DNA of 57,407 nucleotides from Deltaproteobacteria bacterium (lineage in GTDB: Bacteria > CG03 > SLGR01 > JBDRKX01): contig JAIVZN010000002.1 of the NCBI GenBank assembly GCA_048634875.1, forward strand, positions 1-57,407, given 5' to 3'. This document shows positions 9,010-50,662 of this stretch, piece by piece. Position 1 is the first letter of the stretch. Each line of letters starts with the position of its first letter. The notes below the pieces were generated by a model. That model was not told the origin of the DNA. It saw only the letters and a program-made list of their open reading frames with translations, and did not search any database. The translations under genes were made by a program, and so were the position numbers.

Positions 9010-9086
9010 AATTATCCTCCACTATTAGAACACAAGTCACAAGACTTTATTCTGAATTTTGCCCTGTCATTTTTCAATTTTTAATT

Positions 9087-9130
9087 CCTAATCTCCTAAT
9101 CTCCCAGTCTCCTAATCTCACAATCTCCCA
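9087..9130. repeat. Octamer tandem array (CCTAATCT-like, about 5.5 units)
   Basis: The array reads cctaatct cctaatct cccagtct cctaatct cacaatct ccca. On the coding (minus) strand it reads as RGGAGATT units (SD-like GGAG repeated). Confidence 0.7.
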
Positions 9131-9141
9131 TTTTACATTTT

Positions 9142-24948: not shown

Positions 24949-25058
24949 TTAAGGAATGTGGGAGTAAGGATGAGAGATAAGGGAAGAAAATTTTCTTTCT
25001 TCAGCGAAGCGTTCTTCCATCTTCTATCTTCCCTCTTTCCTCTTTCCTCATTCCTCAC
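24949..25058. repeat. Heptad-built hairpin, GGAATGWG family (copy 2)
   Basis: The left arm is ttaaggaatgtgggagtaaggatgagagataagggaagaaaa. The right arm is ttcttccatcttctatcttccctctttcctctttcctcattcctcac. It sits in the recA/pgpA spacer. Confidence 0.65.
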
Positions 25059-26685: not shown

Positions 26686-26702
26686 TTGTAAATAAATCCT
26701 AT

Positions 26703-26890
26703 ATTGAGACCTAAATGATGTTTTTTTTGCGACTTGTGACTTTTTAGTGAAACTATACCGTTAAAAAACTAAAACTTGTTTGAGCCCAACTCTTCATGAA
26801 GAGCTGGGCGAGTTTTTTAGTTTTAGGTATAGTCTCATGTGCCAAAGGCAAAAAGTCTCCGGAGCAAAAAAATATATTTTTAGGGCTCAA
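26703..26890 (-). repeat. Long-hairpin intergenic element X, copy 1 (about 188 nt; the module extends to 26686-26938)
   Basis: It is an imperfect palindrome centred on CTCTTCATGAAGAG (26790-26803), with about 94 nt per arm and outer ends attgagacctaaa...tttagggctcaat. It is near-identical to the reverse complement of 49635-49823. The strand given is the direction of flanking transcription. Confidence 0.85.
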
Positions 26891-26932
26891 TTATTTTTAT
26901 CTCCTTTTGTTAGCTGAAAGCCCATGTCCGTT

Positions 26933-27595
26933 TCACTCAAAATCAAGGATATTCACATCATTGCCTGCCTTAAAACTAAAACAATCATCATTTAAAACAG
27001 GATTTAAGATATAATTTGTAAATATAGTTACTGATTTAAAATTAGGCGCATATACTACTGTCTCCTCTGGAAGATATGTATCAGTATTAAAAAATATAAT
27101 CATATTATCAAAATTATATTCAGTAGAAAGAATGGGGACGGTTCTGATACTTTTCCCATTCTTTCTATTTTCATTTACACTGAGTTTGAAATTTTTTTTC
27201 AAAAGTCCGAATGAGTCTGATGATAGAATCACTGAAGTCGTTACGCCAAGCATATCAATAAAATTATTACTTTTTTGCTTTGTTGCCTGTTTAATCTCAG
27301 GTATGTATGTAAATAAGTATCCATCTGAAAAATAAATTTCCTGTATATGAGGTTTTTGATATATAATTTTAAGATTATCCGGTCTTTTAAAAAAAACCTC
27401 GGCTTTGATAGTTTGCGTACTATCAGCAATAAAAGTATTTTGCTGGAAAGAAAATGAAATTGTTCTCACTTTGCTCATTCTCTCAGTTATCTGCTTAGAT
27501 AACTCCTCTACACTATTACACAGCGCAACCTGCACAATGCAGGATATCAACATAAAATATAAAATATGAATCTTTATCTGTTTAACATTCCTCAT
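26933..27595 (-). CDS. LolA-like outer-membrane lipoprotein carrier
   Basis: It has a signal peptide and the LolA-like pattern (F.Q......G....KRPDNLKIIY..P..QEIYFSDGYLFTY.P). The conserved ftsK-lolA adjacency is present. Confidence 0.6.
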   Translation of the reverse strand: MRNVKQIKIHILYFMLISCIVQVALCNSVEELSKQITERMSKVRTISFSFQQNTFIADSTQTIKAEVFFKRPDNLKIIYQKPHIQEIYFSDGYLFTYIPEIKQATKQKSNNFIDMLGVTTSVILSSDSFGLLKKNFKLSVNENRKNGKSIRTVPILSTEYNFDNMIIFFNTDTYLPEETVVYAPNFKSVTIFTNYILNPVLNDDCFSFKAGNDVNILDFE

Positions 27596-29670
27596 GTGCG
27601 TAAATTTCTCAGGTATTCTTCAGACACAAGTACTTCTCTGCCTTTAACACCTCCATCATTGCTTATAATACCGTTAGCTTCCATCTTATCAATGATTCGG
27701 GCTGCGCGGTTATAACCAATACTTAGACGACGCTGTAAAAGCGATGTAGATGCCTTTTTTAATCTTATAACCGTCTCTACTGCTCTCGGGTATATTTCAT
27801 CTTTATAATCAATCTCCGCCTCATTTTTTTTAAATTTATCCTGCAGTTTAAGTCCGGGCACATATCCATAATTTAAATTCTTTAAATACTCAACAACTGC
27901 TTCTACTTCCTTTCTTGAAATGAAACATCCCTGTAATCTTTCAGCTAAAGGAAGTTCAGTTGCAAGATACAGCATATCGCCTTTGCCAAGTAGTTTTTCT
28001 GCGCCATTTGAATCTAATATTGTCCTGGAATCTACTCCGCTTAACACATTAAAAGCAATTCTTGCAGGAAGATTTGCCTTTATAATACCGGTTATTATAT
28101 CTACTGACGGTCTCTGAGTAGCAAGTACAAGGTGTATCCCTACAGCTCTTGCCATCTGCGCAATTCTGACTATTGCAATTTCAACTTTATCTTTAGCTAC
28201 AACCATCAGGTCAGCAAGTTCATCAATAACTACTACAATACGGGGAAGTTTTTTATTACTTTCCACTATTTTATTATATGCATCTATATTTGCTACATTG
28301 TTTTTTGAAAGAATGTCATACCTTTCATCCATTTCAAGTGTAACAGCCTGAAGCATCTTAACCGCCTTATTGCTGTTCGTAATAACTTCTGAATCTAAAT
28401 GAGGTATGCCATTATATACAGGCAGTTCAACTCTTTTTGGATCTATAAACAGAAACCTGACATCTTCGGGTGAGGATTTAAAAAGTATACTGTTAATAAG
28501 TGCGTGTATTGCTATGCTTTTTCCCGACCCGGTTGCGCCGGCAAGTAAAAGATGAGGCATATCGGAAAGATCTACTATTTTAAAATCACCATCCACAGAC
28601 TTCCCGAGGCAGTAAGGTAAATTTGCAGTATTAGATTTAAATTTACCTGATTCAATTAAAGTCTTTATATATACTGTTTCCTGTTGTATTGCAGGAACTT
28701 CAACGCCGACAGCAGCTTTGCCGGGTATGGGAGTAAGAAGCCGGACTGTTTTTGCCTCAAGCGCCATTGCGATATTTGAATCTAAATTTCTGATACGCGA
28801 TAGTTTTATATCCGGGGGGAGCGTAACCTCGTAACGGGTGGTTGCAGGCCCTATCAACACTCCTGATATACGAGCCGAAATACCAAAGTTTGCCAGAACT
28901 TCTATTAATTTTTCACCTCTTTTATTTTCTTCGTCTTTCTTTAACTTTATCCGCGGTTGAACATTTAAGAGGTCTAACGGTATTGCATAATCAACCTTTT
29001 CGGGAATTGTGGCAGGCCGATTATCGGACGCTCGGGCTTTGTTTAAATCAGCCGAGCAAGCTCGGCCACTGTCGGGGCCTGATTTATCAAGCCCTCGTGC
29101 CGGATAATCTTTTATATGTTTTTTTTTGACTTTCTTTTCTACTTTAGTTACAACCCGGGGCTTTTTTATTTTAGATTTCTTCGGTAATTTTATTAAAAAC
29201 AAAACAACTTTTTTAATGGAAACATCTGCCATAAGAATTAATGCTATCAATACAAGCGCAGTAGAAATAATGTATGCCCCAACTTTCCCAAAAGTAATCT
29301 GTATGATAACATCACTGGAAAAATCGCCTAATATTCCACCACTGCCTTCTGAAATTATGTGTAAAAGGATACTCCCGCCAAGAATAATCATTACCAATCC
29401 GGCGCACATTGAGTACTTAAACGGAAACTTTTTGTGGCGGATTTCTGTAATAGCCCACCAGATAAGAACAACTGGTACTATATAACATATATACCCGAGG
29501 AACTCTTTAAGGCTTCCGGAAAGCACTGCTCCTACAGCTCCCACATATTTTTTATCAGGTGTCAATATGAAGGCAAATATCAAAATTATAGAGAACGCCA
29601 GTAAAATGATTCCAGTAATATCCTTTTTTTTTGTAGAATCTTTTATATTTTTCTTACTTTCAACTTTCAA
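27592..29670 (-). CDS. ftsK: DNA translocase FtsK
   Basis: It has N-terminal TM helices, a low-complexity linker, the motor domain (Walker A GATGSGKS; VVVIDELADLM) and a C-terminal gamma wHTH (LLQRRLSIGYNRAARIID). The only available start is a TTG inside a heptamer repeat. Confidence 0.95.
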   Translation of the reverse strand: MKVESKKNIKDSTKKKDITGIILLAFSIILIFAFILTPDKKYVGAVGAVLSGSLKEFLGYICYIVPVVLIWWAITEIRHKKFPFKYSMCAGLVMIILGGSILLHIISEGSGGILGDFSSDVIIQITFGKVGAYIISTALVLIALILMADVSIKKVVLFLIKLPKKSKIKKPRVVTKVEKKVKKKHIKDYPARGLDKSGPDSGRACSADLNKARASDNRPATIPEKVDYAIPLDLLNVQPRIKLKKDEENKRGEKLIEVLANFGISARISGVLIGPATTRYEVTLPPDIKLSRIRNLDSNIAMALEAKTVRLLTPIPGKAAVGVEVPAIQQETVYIKTLIESGKFKSNTANLPYCLGKSVDGDFKIVDLSDMPHLLLAGATGSGKSIAIHALINSILFKSSPEDVRFLFIDPKRVELPVYNGIPHLDSEVITNSNKAVKMLQAVTLEMDERYDILSKNNVANIDAYNKIVESNKKLPRIVVVIDELADLMVVAKDKVEIAIVRIAQMARAVGIHLVLATQRPSVDIITGIIKANLPARIAFNVLSGVDSRTILDSNGAEKLLGKGDMLYLATELPLAERLQGCFISRKEVEAVVEYLKNLNYGYVPGLKLQDKFKKNEAEIDYKDEIYPRAVETVIRLKKASTSLLQRRLSIGYNRAARIIDKMEANGIISNDGGVKGREVLVSEEYLRNLRT
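29021..29104. repeat. Cluster of short GC-rich palindromes embedded in the ftsK linker
   Basis: The palindromes are CCGATTATCGG (within 29021-29047), GCCGAGCAAGCTCGGC (29061-76) and GGGCCTGATTTATCAAGCCC (29085-29104). The last two recur in the glyA/upp spacer (49536-51 and 49863-82). Confidence 0.7.
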
Positions 29671-30341: not shown

Positions 30342-30448
30342 ATGAGTCCTAAATGATGCATTTTTTGCGAGCTTTAAGACTTTTTAAGTGAAACTATGCC
30401 GTAAAAAAACTAAAACTTGTTTGAGCGTTAGCGAGTTTTTTAGTTTCA
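30342..30448 (-). repeat. Long-hairpin element X, copy 3 (one arm truncated)
   Basis: The sequence is gagtcctaaatgatgcattttttgcgagctttaagactttttaagtgaaactatgccgtaaaaaaactaaaacttgtttgagcgttagcgagttttttagtttca. The partner arm is cut off at the pnp stop codon. Confidence 0.75.
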
Positions 30449-36164: not shown

Positions 36165-36226
36165 TAGATTTATTGATTGACAATTTGGTAATTGATTTCA
36201 ATCTACAATCGTCAATCTACAATCTA
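36165..36226. repeat. Heptad-built hairpin (CAATCTA type)
   Basis: The sequence is tagatttattgattgacaatttggtaattga|tttcaatctacaatcgtcaatctacaatcta. It overlaps the nrnA stop codon. Confidence 0.55.
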
Positions 36227-37245
36227 TCTAATTCCTTCTCCACAGCATCCAAGACTTTTCTTTTAACTTCTTTAAATTCACCTTTTATCAAACATCCTTC
36301 TGCATTGTGGTGTCCCCCTCCGCCAAAATGATTTGCTATCTTATTAACATTTACACCACCTTTAGAACGAAACGAAACTTTTATACCATCTAAGCCGGGT
36401 ATCTTTCTAAACAATATCCCAACTTCCACTCCCTTTATATTACGCGCAAAATTTATAACACCCTCTAAATCTTCAATAGAGGCACCCGTAGTTTGAAACA
36501 TTTCAGGGGTCACTGTTATATATCCAACTCTTTTAGAATTAGTCAGGGTTAAAGATTCTATTGCTTTTGATACAAGCCTGAGACCCTCTATTTCACTGTT
36601 TCTGTATATAAGGGTAGATACTTTTTGAGGAGAAATAAATTTATCAATCAGCCCGGCAGCAATTAAGTGAGATTGAGGGGTTGTATTATCTTCCTGAAAT
36701 TTATCTGTGTCAGTTACAATTCCAATATATATACAGAGAGCAAGGTCATAATCAAACTCAATATTCATCTGAGACGCTATATTAAAAATTAACTCGCAGA
36801 CAGAAGAACTCTTCGGTTTAACATAATTAATATCGCCAAACTCATGATTTAACTGGTGATGGTCAATGTTTATAATTGTCCGAGCCGATGTCAACAGACC
36901 CGATAGCCCTTCAATTCTCTTTTTGTCAGAACAATCAAGTACAAACCCGATATCTTTAGTAGGACAGGCATCTTGCCTGTCAGTAGTATCACCTCCAAAT
37001 GCAGTTTTAATCTTATCTATTCCTTTCAGGAAACTATAAACTCTCGGCAAAGCACTCGGAGAAATAACTTCTACATCTAAACCGAGTTTCCTTAAGATAT
37101 GATACATTGCAAGCGCCCCTCCAATTGCATCGCCATCAGGCCGCGGATGCATTGTAACAAAAGCGCTCTTTGAATTTTCTATCACATTTATAATTTTTGA
37201 GATAATATTTCTATCTTCAACCGGTATATCTAAATTAAGTTTCAT
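36217..37245 (-). CDS. nrnA: DHH/DHHA1 phosphoesterase, NrnA-like oligoribonuclease / pAp phosphatase
   Basis: It carries the HPRPDGDAIGG, DHH (INIDHHQ) and GGGGHHNA motifs. Confidence 0.8.
   Translation of the reverse strand: MKLNLDIPVEDRNIISKIINVIENSKSAFVTMHPRPDGDAIGGALAMYHILRKLGLDVEVISPSALPRVYSFLKGIDKIKTAFGGDTTDRQDACPTKDIGFVLDCSDKKRIEGLSGLLTSARTIINIDHHQLNHEFGDINYVKPKSSSVCELIFNIASQMNIEFDYDLALCIYIGIVTDTDKFQEDNTTPQSHLIAAGLIDKFISPQKVSTLIYRNSEIEGLRLVSKAIESLTLTNSKRVGYITVTPEMFQTTGASIEDLEGVINFARNIKGVEVGILFRKIPGLDGIKVSFRSKGGVNVNKIANHFGGGGHHNAEGCLIKGEFKEVKRKVLDAVEKELDRL
36958..36986. repeat. 19-bp GC-rich palindrome with 5-bp direct flanks, in-frame inside nrnA
   Basis: The sequence is agtag|gacaggcatcttgcctgtc|agtag. 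The same 19-mer is intergenic at 47176-47194. The palindrome plus one flank is 24 nt and encodes DRQDACPT. Confidence 0.75.
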
Positions 37246-46000: not shown

Positions 46001-47152
46001 ATGAAATTCCCATCCGGCTTTTGCATAACCAGTATAAAAGGAGAAAAAAATGATTTTGGCTTGATATTTGCCCCGCTTGGTATGAAAACAGCAGGTATGT
46101 TTACAACAAATTCCTGCCCTGCACATCCAGTTAAATTTTCAAGAGATACAATAAAAAACCCCGTGCATAAAGCAATACTCGTTAATAAGGGGAGTGCAAA
46201 TTCTGCTACAGGCAATGAAGGAAAAAAGCATTTAAAAAATTTAGTAGCAGAAGTTTGCAACGGCCTTGTAATTGGCAAGGAGGAGGTACTTGTTGCATCA
46301 ACAGGTGTAATAGGAAAACAACTGCAATATACAGATTCAGAAATAAACAGGTTAATTGAAAAAAAAGAAAGAGTGGAACCTGATAATTTTGCCCAGGCAA
46401 TTATGACTACGGACACCTGCAAAAAGGTTGTAACAGAAAGTTTTGAAATAGATGGAAAAGAAGTAATAATAACCGGGATTGCAAAAGGTTCCGGAATGAT
46501 TGCGCCTGATTTAGCAACTATGCTTGCATTTATCCTTACAGATGTAAGAATGGAAAAAGAAGCGCTTCAAGCTGCGCTTAAAAGGGCTGCTGATATCAGT
46601 TTTAACTGTTTGAACATTGACGGCGAGACAAGTACAAATGACAGCGTATTCCTTGCAGCGTCAGGAACTGCTCGGAACCGTTCTTTTGGTCAACAAGGAG
46701 AACATTTTGACATATTTTATAAGAGCCTGAAAAAGGTTTGTATTTTGCTTGTAGAGAAACTTACCGGAGATGGCGAAGGAGCAACAAAATTTATAAAAAT
46801 TAACATACGGGGCGCAGTCAATGAAGATAGCGCAAAGAAAGCTGCAAATGCAATAGCAGTTTCACCTCTATGCAAGATTGCTTTTTACGGCGCATCTCCA
46901 AACTGGGGAAGAATAATCTCAGCGCTTGGCGCTGCCCGGATAAAGTTTAGAGTGGAAAATTTCAGCCTGTATATTAACAGCATACCATGGGTAAAAAAAG
47001 GTATACCTCAAAATACAGAACCTGTAAAAAAGGCTTTAGAAAACAGGCAGTATGAAATTAACATACATTTAAATTCAGGAAATAAAAAAGCCTCTTTATA
47101 TACCTGTGATTTCAGCCCGGAGTATGTAAAAATTAACGCGCATTATTCGTAG
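46001..47152 (+). CDS. argJ: Bifunctional ornithine acetyltransferase / N-acetylglutamate synthase
   Basis: The autoprocessing site is PDLATMLAFILTD, with ArgJ blocks throughout. Confidence 0.93.
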   Translation: MKFPSGFCITSIKGEKNDFGLIFAPLGMKTAGMFTTNSCPAHPVKFSRDTIKNPVHKAILVNKGSANSATGNEGKKHLKNLVAEVCNGLVIGKEEVLVASTGVIGKQLQYTDSEINRLIEKKERVEPDNFAQAIMTTDTCKKVVTESFEIDGKEVIITGIAKGSGMIAPDLATMLAFILTDVRMEKEALQAALKRAADISFNCLNIDGETSTNDSVFLAASGTARNRSFGQQGEHFDIFYKSLKKVCILLVEKLTGDGEGATKFIKINIRGAVNEDSAKKAANAIAVSPLCKIAFYGASPNWGRIISALGAARIKFRVENFSLYINSIPWVKKGIPQNTEPVKKALENRQYEINIHLNSGNKKASLYTCDFSPEYVKINAHYS

Positions 47153-47194
47153 TGAAACGGACATGGGCTTTGTGTGACAGGCATCTTGCCTGTC
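47153..47194 (+). repeat. Post-stop motif TGAAACGGACATGGGCTT plus the 19-bp palindrome GACAGGCATCTTGCCTGTC
   Basis: The TGAAACGGACATGRGCTT motif recurs at 49593-49612 and, on the minus strand, at 26913-26938. It is always in the sense orientation of the upstream gene; two copies lie at the stop codon and the 49593 copy lies about 60 nt downstream of it. The palindrome (47176-94) recurs inside nrnA. Confidence 0.7.
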
Positions 47195-47198
47195 AGGA

Positions 47199-47275
47199 TT
47201 ATAAGTTATAAGTGATAAGTTATAGGTGAAATTATAAAAAATAACTCATAATTTATAACTCGTAACTCATAATTT
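47199..47275. repeat. Heptad-built hairpin, TTATAAG family (copy 2)
   Basis: The sequence is attataagttataagtgataagttataggtgaa...ataactcataatttataactcgtaactcataa. Confidence 0.7.
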
Positions 47276-47295
47276 TTTATAGTAGCTATTTACAG

Positions 47296-48311: not shown

Positions 48312-49533
48312 TGATAGAGAAATTTTTGAGGCTATACAGAAAGAAAGAGAACGCCAGCAAAATTACTTAGAGATGATAGCATCAGAGAACTACACGTCTC
48401 TGGCTGTACTTCAGGCTATGGGAAGCCATCTGACAGATAAGTACGCAGAGGGGTATCCGGGAAAGAGATATTATGGCGGATGTGAATATGTGGATATTGC
48501 AGAAACATTGGCTATACAGAGAGCTAAAAAAATATTTGGCTCGGAGCATGTAAATGTACAGCCTCACTCAGGAACACAGGCAAATATTGCTTCGTATTTA
48601 GCTCTTCTTAATATAGGGGATACAATAATGGGCATGGACCTGTCCTGCGGCGGGCATTTAACTCACGGGCACCCGTTAAACTTCAGCGGAAAATACTTTA
48701 ATGTTGTTTCTTATGGCGTAAACAAGGACAGTGAAAGAATAGATTATGAAGAAGTAAAAAATATTGCGCGAAAAGAAAAACCAAAATTAATAATATGCGG
48801 GGCTTCTGCTTATTCAAGAACTATTGATTTTAAGAAGTTCAGGGAAATTGCTGATGAAGTTAATGCTTATTTACTTGCAGATATTGCCCATATAGCAGGA
48901 CTTGTGGCAAAAGGGTTACACATGGATCCTGTCCCCTACTCGGACATTGTAACTACAACAACCCATAAGACTTTAAGAGGGCCCAGAGGCGGTATGATAA
49001 TGTGTAAGGAAAAATACGCTGCCGATATAGATCGTTCTGTTTTCCCGGGTAATCAGGGCGGCCCGTTAATGCATGTAATCGCAGCTAAAGCTGTGTGTTT
49101 TAAAGAGGTATTAAGCGATAATTTTACAGATTATATAAAAAGAGTTGTTGAAAACTGCAAAGTTCTTGCAGAGGAATTAAAAAATAACAGTATCAAATTG
49201 GTAACAGGAGGAACAGATAATCATCTTATTTTAATTGATTTAAGACCCTTAAATATTACCGGAAAGGATGCTGAAAAACTGATGCAGGAAGCAGGGATTG
49301 TTGCAAATAAGAACACAATACCTTATGATCCCGAGAAACCGTTTATTGCATCCGGCTTGAGATTAGGCACTCCAATATTAACAACACGGGGAATGGGTGT
49401 AGGGGAGATAAAAAAAATTGCAGAATTAATTACTGATGTGCTAAAAAAACAGGACGGTAACACGGTTTCCTCTGTCAGAAAAGAAGTATTAAAATTGTGT
49501 AAAAAGTTTCCACTTAATCAGTTGAAAATGTAG
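48295..49533 (+). CDS. glyA: Serine hydroxymethyltransferase
   Basis: It carries LIASENYTS, the PLP Lys in [14 protein letters not shown], and canonical SHMT blocks. Confidence 0.97.
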
Positions 49534-49634
49534 TGGCCGAGCTTGCTCGGCGTGGTAGGAGATTAAGAGATTGGGGTGTAAGTGATGAAGAATGAAACGG
49601 ACATGAGCTTCTCTCGCAAAAGCGGATGAAAATA

Positions 49635-49823
49635 ATTGAGCCCTAAAAATGTATTTTGTTGCTCCAGAGACTTTTTGCCTTTGGCACATGAAACTATGCC
49701 TAAAACTAAAAAACTCCCCAGCCCCTGCACGCAGGAGCTGGGTCAAACAAGTTTTAGTTTTTTAACGCCATAGTTTCATTAAAAAATCACAAGTCGCAAA
49801 AAATGCATCATTTAGGTCTCAAT
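49635..49823 (+). repeat. Long-hairpin element X, copy 2 (inverted relative to copy 1; the module extends to 49593-49905)
   Basis: The sequence is attgagccctaaaaatgtattttgttgctccagagactttttgcctttggcacatgaaactatgcctaaaactaaaaaactcccc...gggtcaaacaagttttagttttttaacgccatagtttcattaaaaaatcacaagtcgcaaaaaatgcatcatttaggtctcaat. Confidence 0.85.
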
Positions 49824-49909
49824 TCGACGCCTACGCAAAATTGTAGAGCCTTGATTTTGTAGGGGCTTGATTTATCAAGCCCGATAAAGGATTTATTTAC
49901 GAGTGTAAG

Positions 49910-50545
49910 ATGAATAAAGTAAATATAGTTAAACATCCGCTGATACAGGATAAGCTGACAAGACTGAGAGATGTCAATACAAAAAGCAGGGATTTCAGGG
50001 CATTATTAAAAGAATTATCTGCGCTGATGGCATTTGAAGTAACAAAAGATTTAAATACAACCAAAGTCCATGTGAGGACTCCGCTTGATACGGAAGCAGA
50101 TGGAGTTGTAGTTGAACATTACCAGATTGCTCTTATCCCTATACTTCGCGCAGGTATTGGTATGGTAAATGGAGTTCTTGAAGTTATTCCCCAGGCAAGG
50201 GTTGGACATATTGGCATATACAGGGACCCTGATACACTGAAAGCAGTTAAATATTACCAGAAACTTCCTTTGAATATAGATAGATGTCAGTTAGTAATAC
50301 TGATTGATCCCATGCTTGCAACGGGCCATACCATGGTTGCCACTTTAAATATCTGCAAGGAGATGGGAGCAAAAAATTTAAGAATAATGTGTTTAGTTGC
50401 AGCGCCTGAAGGAATTAATGAAGTTAAAAAATACTATAAAGATATTCCAATATTTACTGCAGCAGTAGATGAGTGTCTGAATGAGCATGGCTATATTCTG
50501 CCGGGTTTAGGTGATGCAGGAGACAGGATATTTGGCACCAAGTAA
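49910..50545 (+). CDS. upp: Uracil phosphoribosyltransferase
   Basis: It carries the PRPP-binding site LIDPMLATGHT and the C-terminal YI.PGLGDAGDR.FGT. Confidence 0.95.
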   Translation: MNKVNIVKHPLIQDKLTRLRDVNTKSRDFRALLKELSALMAFEVTKDLNTTKVHVRTPLDTEADGVVVEHYQIALIPILRAGIGMVNGVLEVIPQARVGHIGIYRDPDTLKAVKYYQKLPLNIDRCQLVILIDPMLATGHTMVATLNICKEMGAKNLRIMCLVAAPEGINEVKKYYKDIPIFTAAVDECLNEHGYILPGLGDAGDRIFGTK

Positions 50546-50662
50546 GTTATGAGTTACGAGTTATGAATTATAATAAAAGTTATAAGTTACAAATTATAAA
50601 TTATAAGTTAAATACTCATAACTCTTCACCTATAACTTATCACTCATCACTTATAACTTATT
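50543..50662. repeat. Heptad-built hairpin, TTATAAG family (copy 3, inverted relative to copy 2)
   Basis: The sequence is taagttatgagttacgagttatgaattataataaaagttataagttacaaattataaattataagttaaatactcataactcttcacctataacttatcactcatcacttataactta. Its reverse complement shares AAGTTATAAGTGA(TGAGTGA)TAAGTTATAGGTGAA and ATAACTCGTAACTCATAA with copy 2. Confidence 0.7.

Follow-up and report, generated by a model that had tools for sequence, protein, structure and literature searches.

The subject of this analysis is a G+C-rich block inside ftsK, the gene for a DNA translocase, on a 57,407-nt contig (JAIVZN010000002.1, called the window over its full length) from an uncultured Elusimicrobiota bacterium of cold-seep or marine sediment. 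We put at about 80% the probability that this block is a cluster of repetitive extragenic palindromes (REPs) that entered the linker of FtsK and has stayed there as a passenger, in frame and neutral. Its later evolution resembles that of hairpin-prone DNA free of constraint, save for the one requirement of an open reading frame. The original prediction, made from the letters of the window, had proposed that intergenic repeat modules colonised this linker while keeping the frame. That idea is now supported by the membership of the repeats in families of mostly extragenic, GTAG-tagged elements, by a linker that does not align between orthologs and by an open frame in four alleles. The prediction was incomplete, as an additional and partly deleted REP unit is present, and the elements already have a name, GTAG REPs, whose intragenic copies are documented (PMC3733652).

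The repeat block and its families

The ftsK coding sequence runs from 27592 to 29670 on the minus strand and specifies 692 residues; its identification comes from the translated open reading frame (ORF), homologs and Pfam domains (FtsK_4TM at residues 42-156, FtsK_alpha at 231-326, the motor at 335-523 and gamma at 623-682). The best homologs are annotated as DNA translocase FtsK and come from metagenome-assembled genomes (MAGs) of Elusimicrobiota. The composite block, an unstranded feature at 29019..29109, encodes residues of about 188-218, in the linker between the 4TM and alpha domains. The G+C-rich patch announced for this linker is real, with 57% G+C in 29000-29099 against 35.6% over the full window, and the peptide given for it, ...YPARGLDKSGPDSGRACSADLNKARASDNRPATIPEK..., is found in the translation. 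The three palindromes that were said to compose the patch are also all present, at positions 10 nt lower than had been given, namely CCGATTATCGG at 29017-29027, GCCGAGCAAGCTCGGC at 29051-29066 and GGGCCTGATTTATCAAGCCC at 29075-29094. Two of them are solid repeats. The other, CCGATTATCGG (29017..29027), is not supported as a recurring repeat, given a count that is reached in 5 of 100 shuffles and the absence of any further copy from the window and from 1.6 Mb of related loci. It contributes to the left arm of the imperfect 17-bp inverted repeat by which the block is bracketed (arms 29019-29035, GATTATCGGACGCTCGG, and 29093-29109, CCTCGTGCCGGATAATC). The left part of the region as a whole, 29005-29050, has no significant match in the window or in 241 fetched loci.

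The two remaining palindromes recur in the spacer between glyA and upp far above chance, and for each of them the observed match count was reached by none of 100 dinucleotide-preserving shuffles. Positions 29051-29070 are the exact reverse complement of 49532-49551 (20/20, BLAST E 6.6e-6 within the window), which begins inside the glyA stop codon, and 29074-29094 matches 49862-49882 at 20 of 21 positions. Both correspondences, the 20-mer shared with the site just after glyA and the second palindrome at 49863-49882, had been noticed in the original prediction and are borne out. The palindromes are not peculiar to these two loci, as hundreds of copies exist in public genomes and metagenomes.

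We name the units P1 (family B), P2 (family A) and P3 (family C, GTAG-GACAGGCATCTTGCCTGTC). In the ftsK block, P2 lies at 29071..29094 on the plus strand and consists of a GTCG tail and the hairpin GGGCCTGAT-TT-ATCAAGCCC; it encodes GLDKSGP(D), and its single stem mismatch in the window forms a G.U pair in the mRNA. P1, at 29051..29070 on the minus strand, reads AGTGGCCGAGC-TT-GCTCGGC and encodes SGRACSA; its tail is shortened to ACAG and abuts that of P2, so that the two form a dimer with the tails inside (a tail-to-tail or TT dimer). A spacer and the remnant of a third REP, P4, which is the usual inverted partner of P1, occupy 29031..29050 on the plus strand and have lost 12 nt in the window. 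On the coding strand the order is thus P2|P1 with tails inside, a spacer of 9-13 nt, and P4 with tails outside. By these sequences the block is one family-A REP joined tail to tail to a family-B inverted dimer of the kind known as a REPIN or bacterial interspersed mosaic element (BIME), and in the nomenclature of PMC3733652 it counts as a 'grouped' trimer.

The intergenic copies in the window are more complete. The family-B REP at 49530..49551 (plus) has the full tail GTAG-TG-GCCGAGCTTGCTCGGC, the TAG of which is the glyA stop codon. The family-A REP at 49843..49882 (plus), upstream of upp, has its GTAG at 49859-62 and its hairpin at 49863-82, directly preceded by a half-copy, GTAGAGCCTTGATTTT, at 49843-58. 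P3, GTAG-GACAGGCA-TCT-TGCCTGTC, lies in frame in an nrnA-like gene at 36959..36981 (plus), and its intergenic copy TGACAGGCATCTTGCCTGTCA, with the tail GTGT, is found at 47175..47195 (plus) downstream of ORF 46001..47152 (family D20). Intact GTAG tails are therefore seen in the window at intergenic P1 (49530), intergenic P2 (49859) and genic P3 (36959), and they are present in family copies elsewhere. All three units are small palindromic stem-loops as in the GTAG REP superfamily, with stem and loop sizes of 7 bp and 2 nt for P1, 9 bp and 2 nt for P2 and 8 bp and 3 nt for P3, and the ftsK block shows the inverted dimers and clusters (BIMEs, REPINs, head-to-head and tail-to-tail dimers) of that superfamily. 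As a side observation, tandem arrays of half-REPs (GTAGGGGCTTGATTnATCT repeated) adjoin full family-A REPs in the window (49843-49858) and at L007, L009, L036 and L070, which suggests abortive or slipped copying at the hairpin.

A scan of one genome per species with the family-A query GGGCYTGATWWATCARGCCC returned at least 119 stretches, where about 9 are expected by chance according to our estimate from the information in the pattern and the size of the database. The consensus, GTAG-GGGCTTGATTTATCAAGCCC, comes from 137 copies in other genomes among the matches listed, and in this same set GTAG stands on one side of 117 of the 137 copies and the loop is TT in 107 of the 113 copies that can be oriented. 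Of 140 listed copies, about 110 lie in stop-to-stop frames of less than 120 codons, so that some 80% are clearly extragenic. The listed hosts are Omnitrophota, Aminicenantes, Atribacterota, Elusimicrobia, Nitrospirota, Thermodesulfobacteriota, Chloroflexota and others. Family A often forms inverted pairs with another hairpin of like build, and the stems differ by compensatory changes, as in GTAGGGGTCGGATTTATCCGACCC and GTAGGGGTTCGATTTATCGAACCC. Most of the matches in long stop-to-stop frames were set aside since they fall upstream of where the gene probably starts or in ORFs that are implausible, and the frame of 2666 codons in L039 has the look of an antisense artefact.

For family B, metagenome contigs scanned with AGTGGCCGAGCWWGCTCGGC gave at least 120 stretches, on contigs of 36-73% G+C. 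Among the matches listed, GT precedes 118 of 126 copies, giving GTAGTGGCCGAGCTTGCTCGGC, and the unit is GTAG-TG-GCCGAGCTTGCTCGGC; in 44 of the 126 an inverted partner ...CCACTAC (...GCAAGCTTTGCCACTAC), typically GGCAAAGCAAGCTTTGCCACTAC, lies no more than 70 nt from P1. The same dimer of P1 and GGCAAAGCAAGCTTTGCCACTAC as in the ftsK block thus recurs in metagenomes. Both families are multi-copy in other genomes and stand mostly outside genes. Because of this position and of the GTAG at one end, we regard P1 and P2, on the grounds of their sequences, as apparently bona fide GTAG-tagged intergenic repeat modules. The exact family sequences had no match in the searchable literature.

Two further observations concern these families. 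The motif CAGACTGTGTCATAAT is conserved directly 5' of the GTAG of family-A dimers in L015, L029, L045, L057 and L064, mostly MAGs of Omnitrophota; it resembles an extended -10 promoter element, and some REP dimers may lie at the 5' ends of transcripts. An all-against-all clustering of the ORFs near family-A REPs found no recurrent neighbour gene.

Alleles, relatives and the decay of the block

The block is not confined to one assembly. It is found in the window, in L001 (GCA_030601005.1, 98.7% identical over 4.2 kb), in L243 (a Logan contig, 97-99% identical), in P0123 and in Logan contigs of four cold-seep and sediment runs. Exact look-ups of the FtsK and Upp of the window gave no match; by a cluster look-up the contig of the window is an NCBI record whose FtsK (P0121) falls in the same 90% cluster, and the cluster members P0121-P0123 all have the block. 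No contig that skips the block was seen among these members and the contigs of the four runs. In one cold-seep run (X1) two alleles of the block are present, and the assembly breaks at the block (28956-29109) into contigs of 171 and 474 nt.

The alleles differ in length by 0, +9 and +12 nt at 29034-38, all indels being multiples of three, and the open frame is retained in all four alleles recovered, which belong to the same species. On the coding strand the family-A hairpin, GGGCTTGATAAATCA(G/A)GCCC, is followed by a tail that differs between the strains (CTAC, CGAC and TTAC in L001, the window and L243 respectively), then by AGTGGCCGAGC(TT/AA)GCTCGGC of family B and by the spacer TGATTTAAAC. 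In the other direction the tail of family A reads GTAG (L001), GTCG (window) or GTAA (L243), which suggests that it was lost independently in different alleles. P4 shows a stepwise shortening. For L243 its coding-strand sequence is still GCAAGCTTTGCCAC, and the third unit there, AAGGCAAGCTTTGCCAC, matches the usual family-B partner at 14 of 14 positions; 3 nt are lost in L001, and 12 nt in the window and P0123. In E. coli, any mutation of GTAG abolishes binding and cleavage by TnpA_REP (PMC8266576). Because the GTAG tails of the FtsK copies are mutated or truncated, these copies are, by analogy with that enzyme, probably immobile fossils now.

Substitutions are concentrated in the block. Between the window and L001, 9 of 46 substitutions and a 9-nt indel fall within its 94 nt, where 1.0 substitution is expected; by our own arithmetic the Poisson probability of this excess is about 1e-6, and the density is about 10-fold above that of the flanks. 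The loop of P1 is TT in the window, which is canonical, and AA in L001, and AA was seen in 1 of 126 family-B copies elsewhere (among the matches listed). The P2 stem and the outer arms of the block pair perfectly in L001 and imperfectly in the window; the arms in L001 pair over 7+5 bp without mismatch. Folded with the outer arms paired, the block has z-scores against shuffles of -3.0 (window) and -4.8 (L001). When a hairpin undergoes intrastrand template switching, the outcome is loop inversion and perfected stems, and such quasipalindrome template switching is known from the E. coli literature. The inversion of a 2-nt loop within a perfect hairpin and the perfectly paired P2 stem and arms of L001 have the same character, so we infer that these differences between L001 and the window are products of hairpin-templated switching; here they are a signature between natural alleles, from which both direction and mechanism are deduced. 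Taken together, the pattern of decay indicates a peptide under relaxed constraint, a frame under strong constraint and DNA whose structure is unstable at this place.

More distant relatives have no such block. The linker does not align among FtsK orthologs, and relatives whose FtsK is 52-66% identical have lysine-rich linkers of similar or greater length without REP sequences. In the two with the same gene order, L241 (22 kb) and L242 (16 kb), where FtsK is 64-66% identical, no GTAG hairpins were found save one false positive in a conserved coding sequence, and the intergenic spacers are very short. Since there are no intermediate relatives and the linker does not align, we infer the insertion into ftsK rather than see it directly.

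An insertion of this kind is seen more cleanly in the nrnA-like gene at 36217..37245 (minus strand; Pfam DHH and DHHA1). There the P3 palindrome encodes TDRQDACPT. The alignment with the syntenic ortholog of L241 has a gap of 9 residues, placed by MAFFT at GGDTTDRQD, and relative to Thermotoga TM1595, a solved homolog, the segment is an insertion of 10 residues. By these alignments P3 is a clean in-frame insertion of 9 codons, so that insertion is shown in nrnA, whereas for ftsK it is deduced. By direct translation, family A is open in three of its six reading frames, with the recurrent peptides GLDKSSPY, RGLIYQA and GLINQAP, and stop-free in-frame insertions would therefore not be rare. Two further cases were observed elsewhere. 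In L113 (3-791, minus) a family-A doublet (…CRGRIYPTRSGGLDKSSPY…) lies in frame directly N-terminal of the H-kinase_dim domain of a CheA-like kinase, and in L231 (3-1688) a family-B unit (…CRASSATT…) lies inside the PriA_C domain of PriA.

Origin of the block and competing explanations

If a REP cluster entered the linker, its units would have arrived by a single-strand, hairpin-guided cut-and-paste or copying of the type performed by REP-associated tyrosine transposases (RAYT, TnpA_REP), or by recombination with another REP cluster. In the disordered linker of a division-essential gene only an insertion that preserves the frame and brings no stop would survive, and the approximately 30 encoded residues (GLDKSGPDSGRACSADLNKA...) would then be a neutral passenger. 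It is the membership of the units in REP families that points to a possible mobilisation by RAYT. Our motif screen for RAYT genes covered 1.57 Mb and found two ORFs, in L140 and L028, both with Pfam Y1_Tnp. The Y1_Tnp ORF of L028 has a different palindrome at its flanks. The ORF of L140 (1456-1997, metagenome contig Ga0114919_10087285) is IS200/RAYT-like and has a GTAG hairpin just upstream; its coding sequence itself contains two inverted family-B REPs (1632-1653 and 1794-1815), with its length unchanged relative to the Pfam profile.

Several observations weigh against the entry of a REP cluster. Within the window P1 and P2 have only two copies each, half of them genic, and the FtsK copies there have no intact GTAG tail. 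The 17-bp bracket and the G+C-rich segment 29010-29030 are not accounted for by the REP families. No ftsK allele with an empty site was found, nor any relative between 97% and 66% identity, and the motif screen found no Y1 or RAYT gene in the window. Some of the exact matches to the family-B 20-mer in metagenomes, moreover, are ordinary coding sequence rather than REPs (VVAELAR in AroA-like and aminotransferase-like ORFs) and had to be discarded.

That the resemblance is due to chance, composition or an assembly error might be considered, as the sequences are short (16-20 nt), have two copies each in the window and coincide with an assembly break in one sample. We exclude this explanation because none of 100 shuffles reached the observed counts and at least four independent assemblies contain the block, with differences specific to the alleles; nor can chance produce a GTAG tail and a loop orientation common to whole families. 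A different possibility is that the hairpins are kept for a function in ftsK, such as mRNA pausing after the 4TM helices or a DNA or RNA site that uncouples the expression of anchor and motor. The block does fold better than shuffles (by the z-scores given above), the P1 and P2 stems are kept in all four alleles, the one change in the P2 stem of the window is G.U-compatible on the mRNA strand, and a position right after 4TM would suit co-translational membrane insertion, where pausing is our own extrapolation. We nevertheless consider a function quite improbable, since the substitutions are some 10-fold denser in the block than in its flanks, the third hairpin is undergoing stepwise deletion, the same sequences stand in hundreds of unrelated and mostly intergenic contexts in many phyla, and relatives with the same gene order do without the hairpins. 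Neither the terminator scan nor the promoter scan gave a signal at the ftsK block or at either intergenic REP. An intrinsic transcription terminator, that is a G+C-rich hairpin with a T-run, is accordingly rejected for the REPs, and so is a known structured RNA, as no Rfam covariance model matched at gathering score anywhere in the window. In metatranscriptome contigs of the same sample only parts of the 5' region of ftsK are covered, and none of them reaches the block.

The route of entry could also have been recombination, gene conversion with an intergenic cluster or template switching during replication, with no RAYT-type transposase involved. We found no RAYT in the window with the motif screen, and the tails in ftsK are truncated or overlap (AGTGG comes straight after CTAC), so that they resemble a junction more than two complete units; the inversion of the L001 loop from TT to AA and its perfected P2 stem and outer arms are typical of hairpin-templated switching. 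On the other hand, the partners in the window are arranged differently, with P1 and P2 310 nt apart and P1 inverted relative to P2 as compared with ftsK, no donor of the same architecture is visible in the window, and elsewhere (L140) a Y1_Tnp gene does stand beside REPs of these families. We judge such a route unlikely. The REP cluster that entered the linker and stayed as a passenger remains our preferred reading of the block.

Relation to known repeats and wider observations

REPs are described as palindromes of 20-50 nt with a conserved GTAG in front, mostly intergenic, arranged in inverted pairs and tied to tnpA_REP/RAYT genes (PMC8266576), and within the GTAG superfamily some families carry the tail directly at the stem while others have two extra bases between (PMC3733652). 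The units described here share with the GTAG REPs, BIMEs and REPINs that occur with RAYT in E. coli, Pseudomonas, Stenotrophomonas and Marinomonas a short G+C-rich hairpin (7-9 bp stem, 2-3 nt loop) and an unpaired GTAG. They also share inverted dimers with tails outside or inside, compensatory stem variants and a mostly extragenic position, often just after stop codons. Families A and C have the tail directly adjacent, like the REPs of S. maltophilia, and family B has it 2 bases from the stem, like Marinomonas REP-Mb and GTAG-1/2. The differences are that our host is an uncultured Elusimicrobiota bacterium of cold-seep or marine sediment and that these 20-24-mers span many phyla, on contigs of 31 to 73% G+C.

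REPs inside genes have been described before. GTAG and CGTC REPs occur within genes of several species, mostly as dimers or groups that encode 20-30 residues, linkers or loops have been proposed to make such inserts neutral, REP dimers nested in palindromic targets have been reported, and intragenic REPs have been related to the Rickettsia palindromic elements (RPEs), of which the shorter RPE-4 and RPE-6 were placed under CGTC-tagged families (PMC3733652). The catalogue of Di Nocera et al. 2013 (Opitutus terrae, Thauera, Thioalkalivibrio and others) contains REP singlets, dimers and groups that lie wholly inside ORFs of known proteins, and both the FtsK block (a trimer of about 30 residues) and the nrnA singlet (9 residues) fit its description. 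FtsK is not among its targets in the main text or the accessible supplements (PMC3733652). The ftsK case is thus a new example of the intragenic GTAG REPs described in 2013 and not a new phenomenon. Beyond that catalogue, the population alleles seen here show decay after insertion with frame-preserving indels. What goes beyond the literature accessible to us is the host phylum, the allele series of decay and the breadth of phyla with identical REPs.

Two other classes of element were considered and rejected. A MITE (miniature inverted-repeat transposable element) does not describe the block, for an imperfect 17-bp bracket is present but the composite has no second copy in the window, and P1 and P2 recur separately; no target-site duplication was seen in the flanks of the block, for which no systematic search was made. 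With the RPEs the block shares the property of selfish palindromes that sit in frame in still-functional genes and add peptide. Classic RPE-1 elements measure about 100-150 bp. RPE-1 (Ogata et al. 2000, cited in PMC3733652) is called 'longer' in PMC3733652, and the GTAG-tagged units in this Elusimicrobiota MAG have 20-25 nt. Membership in the Rickettsia family is for these reasons rejected, and the likeness is a functional analogy, in which no sequence similarity was sought or expected.

The case illustrates how a core division gene can be colonised by selfish hairpin repeats, here in the small A+T-rich genome of a bacterium from an uncultured phylum. The four natural alleles record the loss of a GTAG tail, the inversion of a loop and the stepwise deletion of a unit, always in multiples of three, and thereby form a natural experiment in how much the FtsK linker tolerates and in mutation driven by hairpins. 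At a practical level, REP blocks yield odd G+C-rich peptides in annotated proteins and, in one sample, fragment the metagenome assembly.

The lead most worth following is the spread of identical REPs across phyla. Families A and B with identical cores of 20-24 nt were observed in MAGs of at least 12 phyla, on contigs of 31-73% G+C (L002-L240; among the matches listed). A tentative interpretation of this spread over at least 12 phyla of anoxic sediments and groundwater, which we hold to be possible but on balance doubtful, is that a REP/RAYT system, or the code by which it recognises its targets, passes between phyla or is conserved among them and repeatedly writes in-frame peptide cassettes into core proteins. 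If this were true, GLDKSSPY, SGRACSA and TDRQDACPT would be such cassettes in linkers or loops of FtsK, NrnA, a CheA-like kinase and PriA, and a REP pair would have entered even a Y1 transposase gene. It would also be at odds with the prevailing picture of REPIN-RAYT systems as lineage-specific and mostly vertically inherited, as given in the accessible part of bioRxiv 10.1101/2022.05.22.493013.

The spacers of the window hold other repeats as well. They are rich in short A+T-rich tandem and interspersed repeats (TCCTAATC octamers, CTTCC-rich units and AAGTTATAAGTTA units), for example at 9078-9135, 25008-25058, 47199-47277 and 50544-50660, in contrast to the tight spacers of L241 and L242. 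A further element, of about 240 nt, occupies the spacer between lolA and rodZ (26686-26932; also 49617-49823 and 30343-30426). The glyA-upp spacer holds a copy in reverse complement, to which the 207-nt core of the element is 86% identical. Both the window and L001 have the element, and it is absent from L243, where the ATG of rodZ sits 8 nt after the lolA stop. The left-end motif of the element, TGAAACGGACATGRGCTT, recurs at 47155 and 49593. Its end AGGATTTATTTACAAGTG gives rodZ its GTG start in the window, and the same end motif stands before upp.

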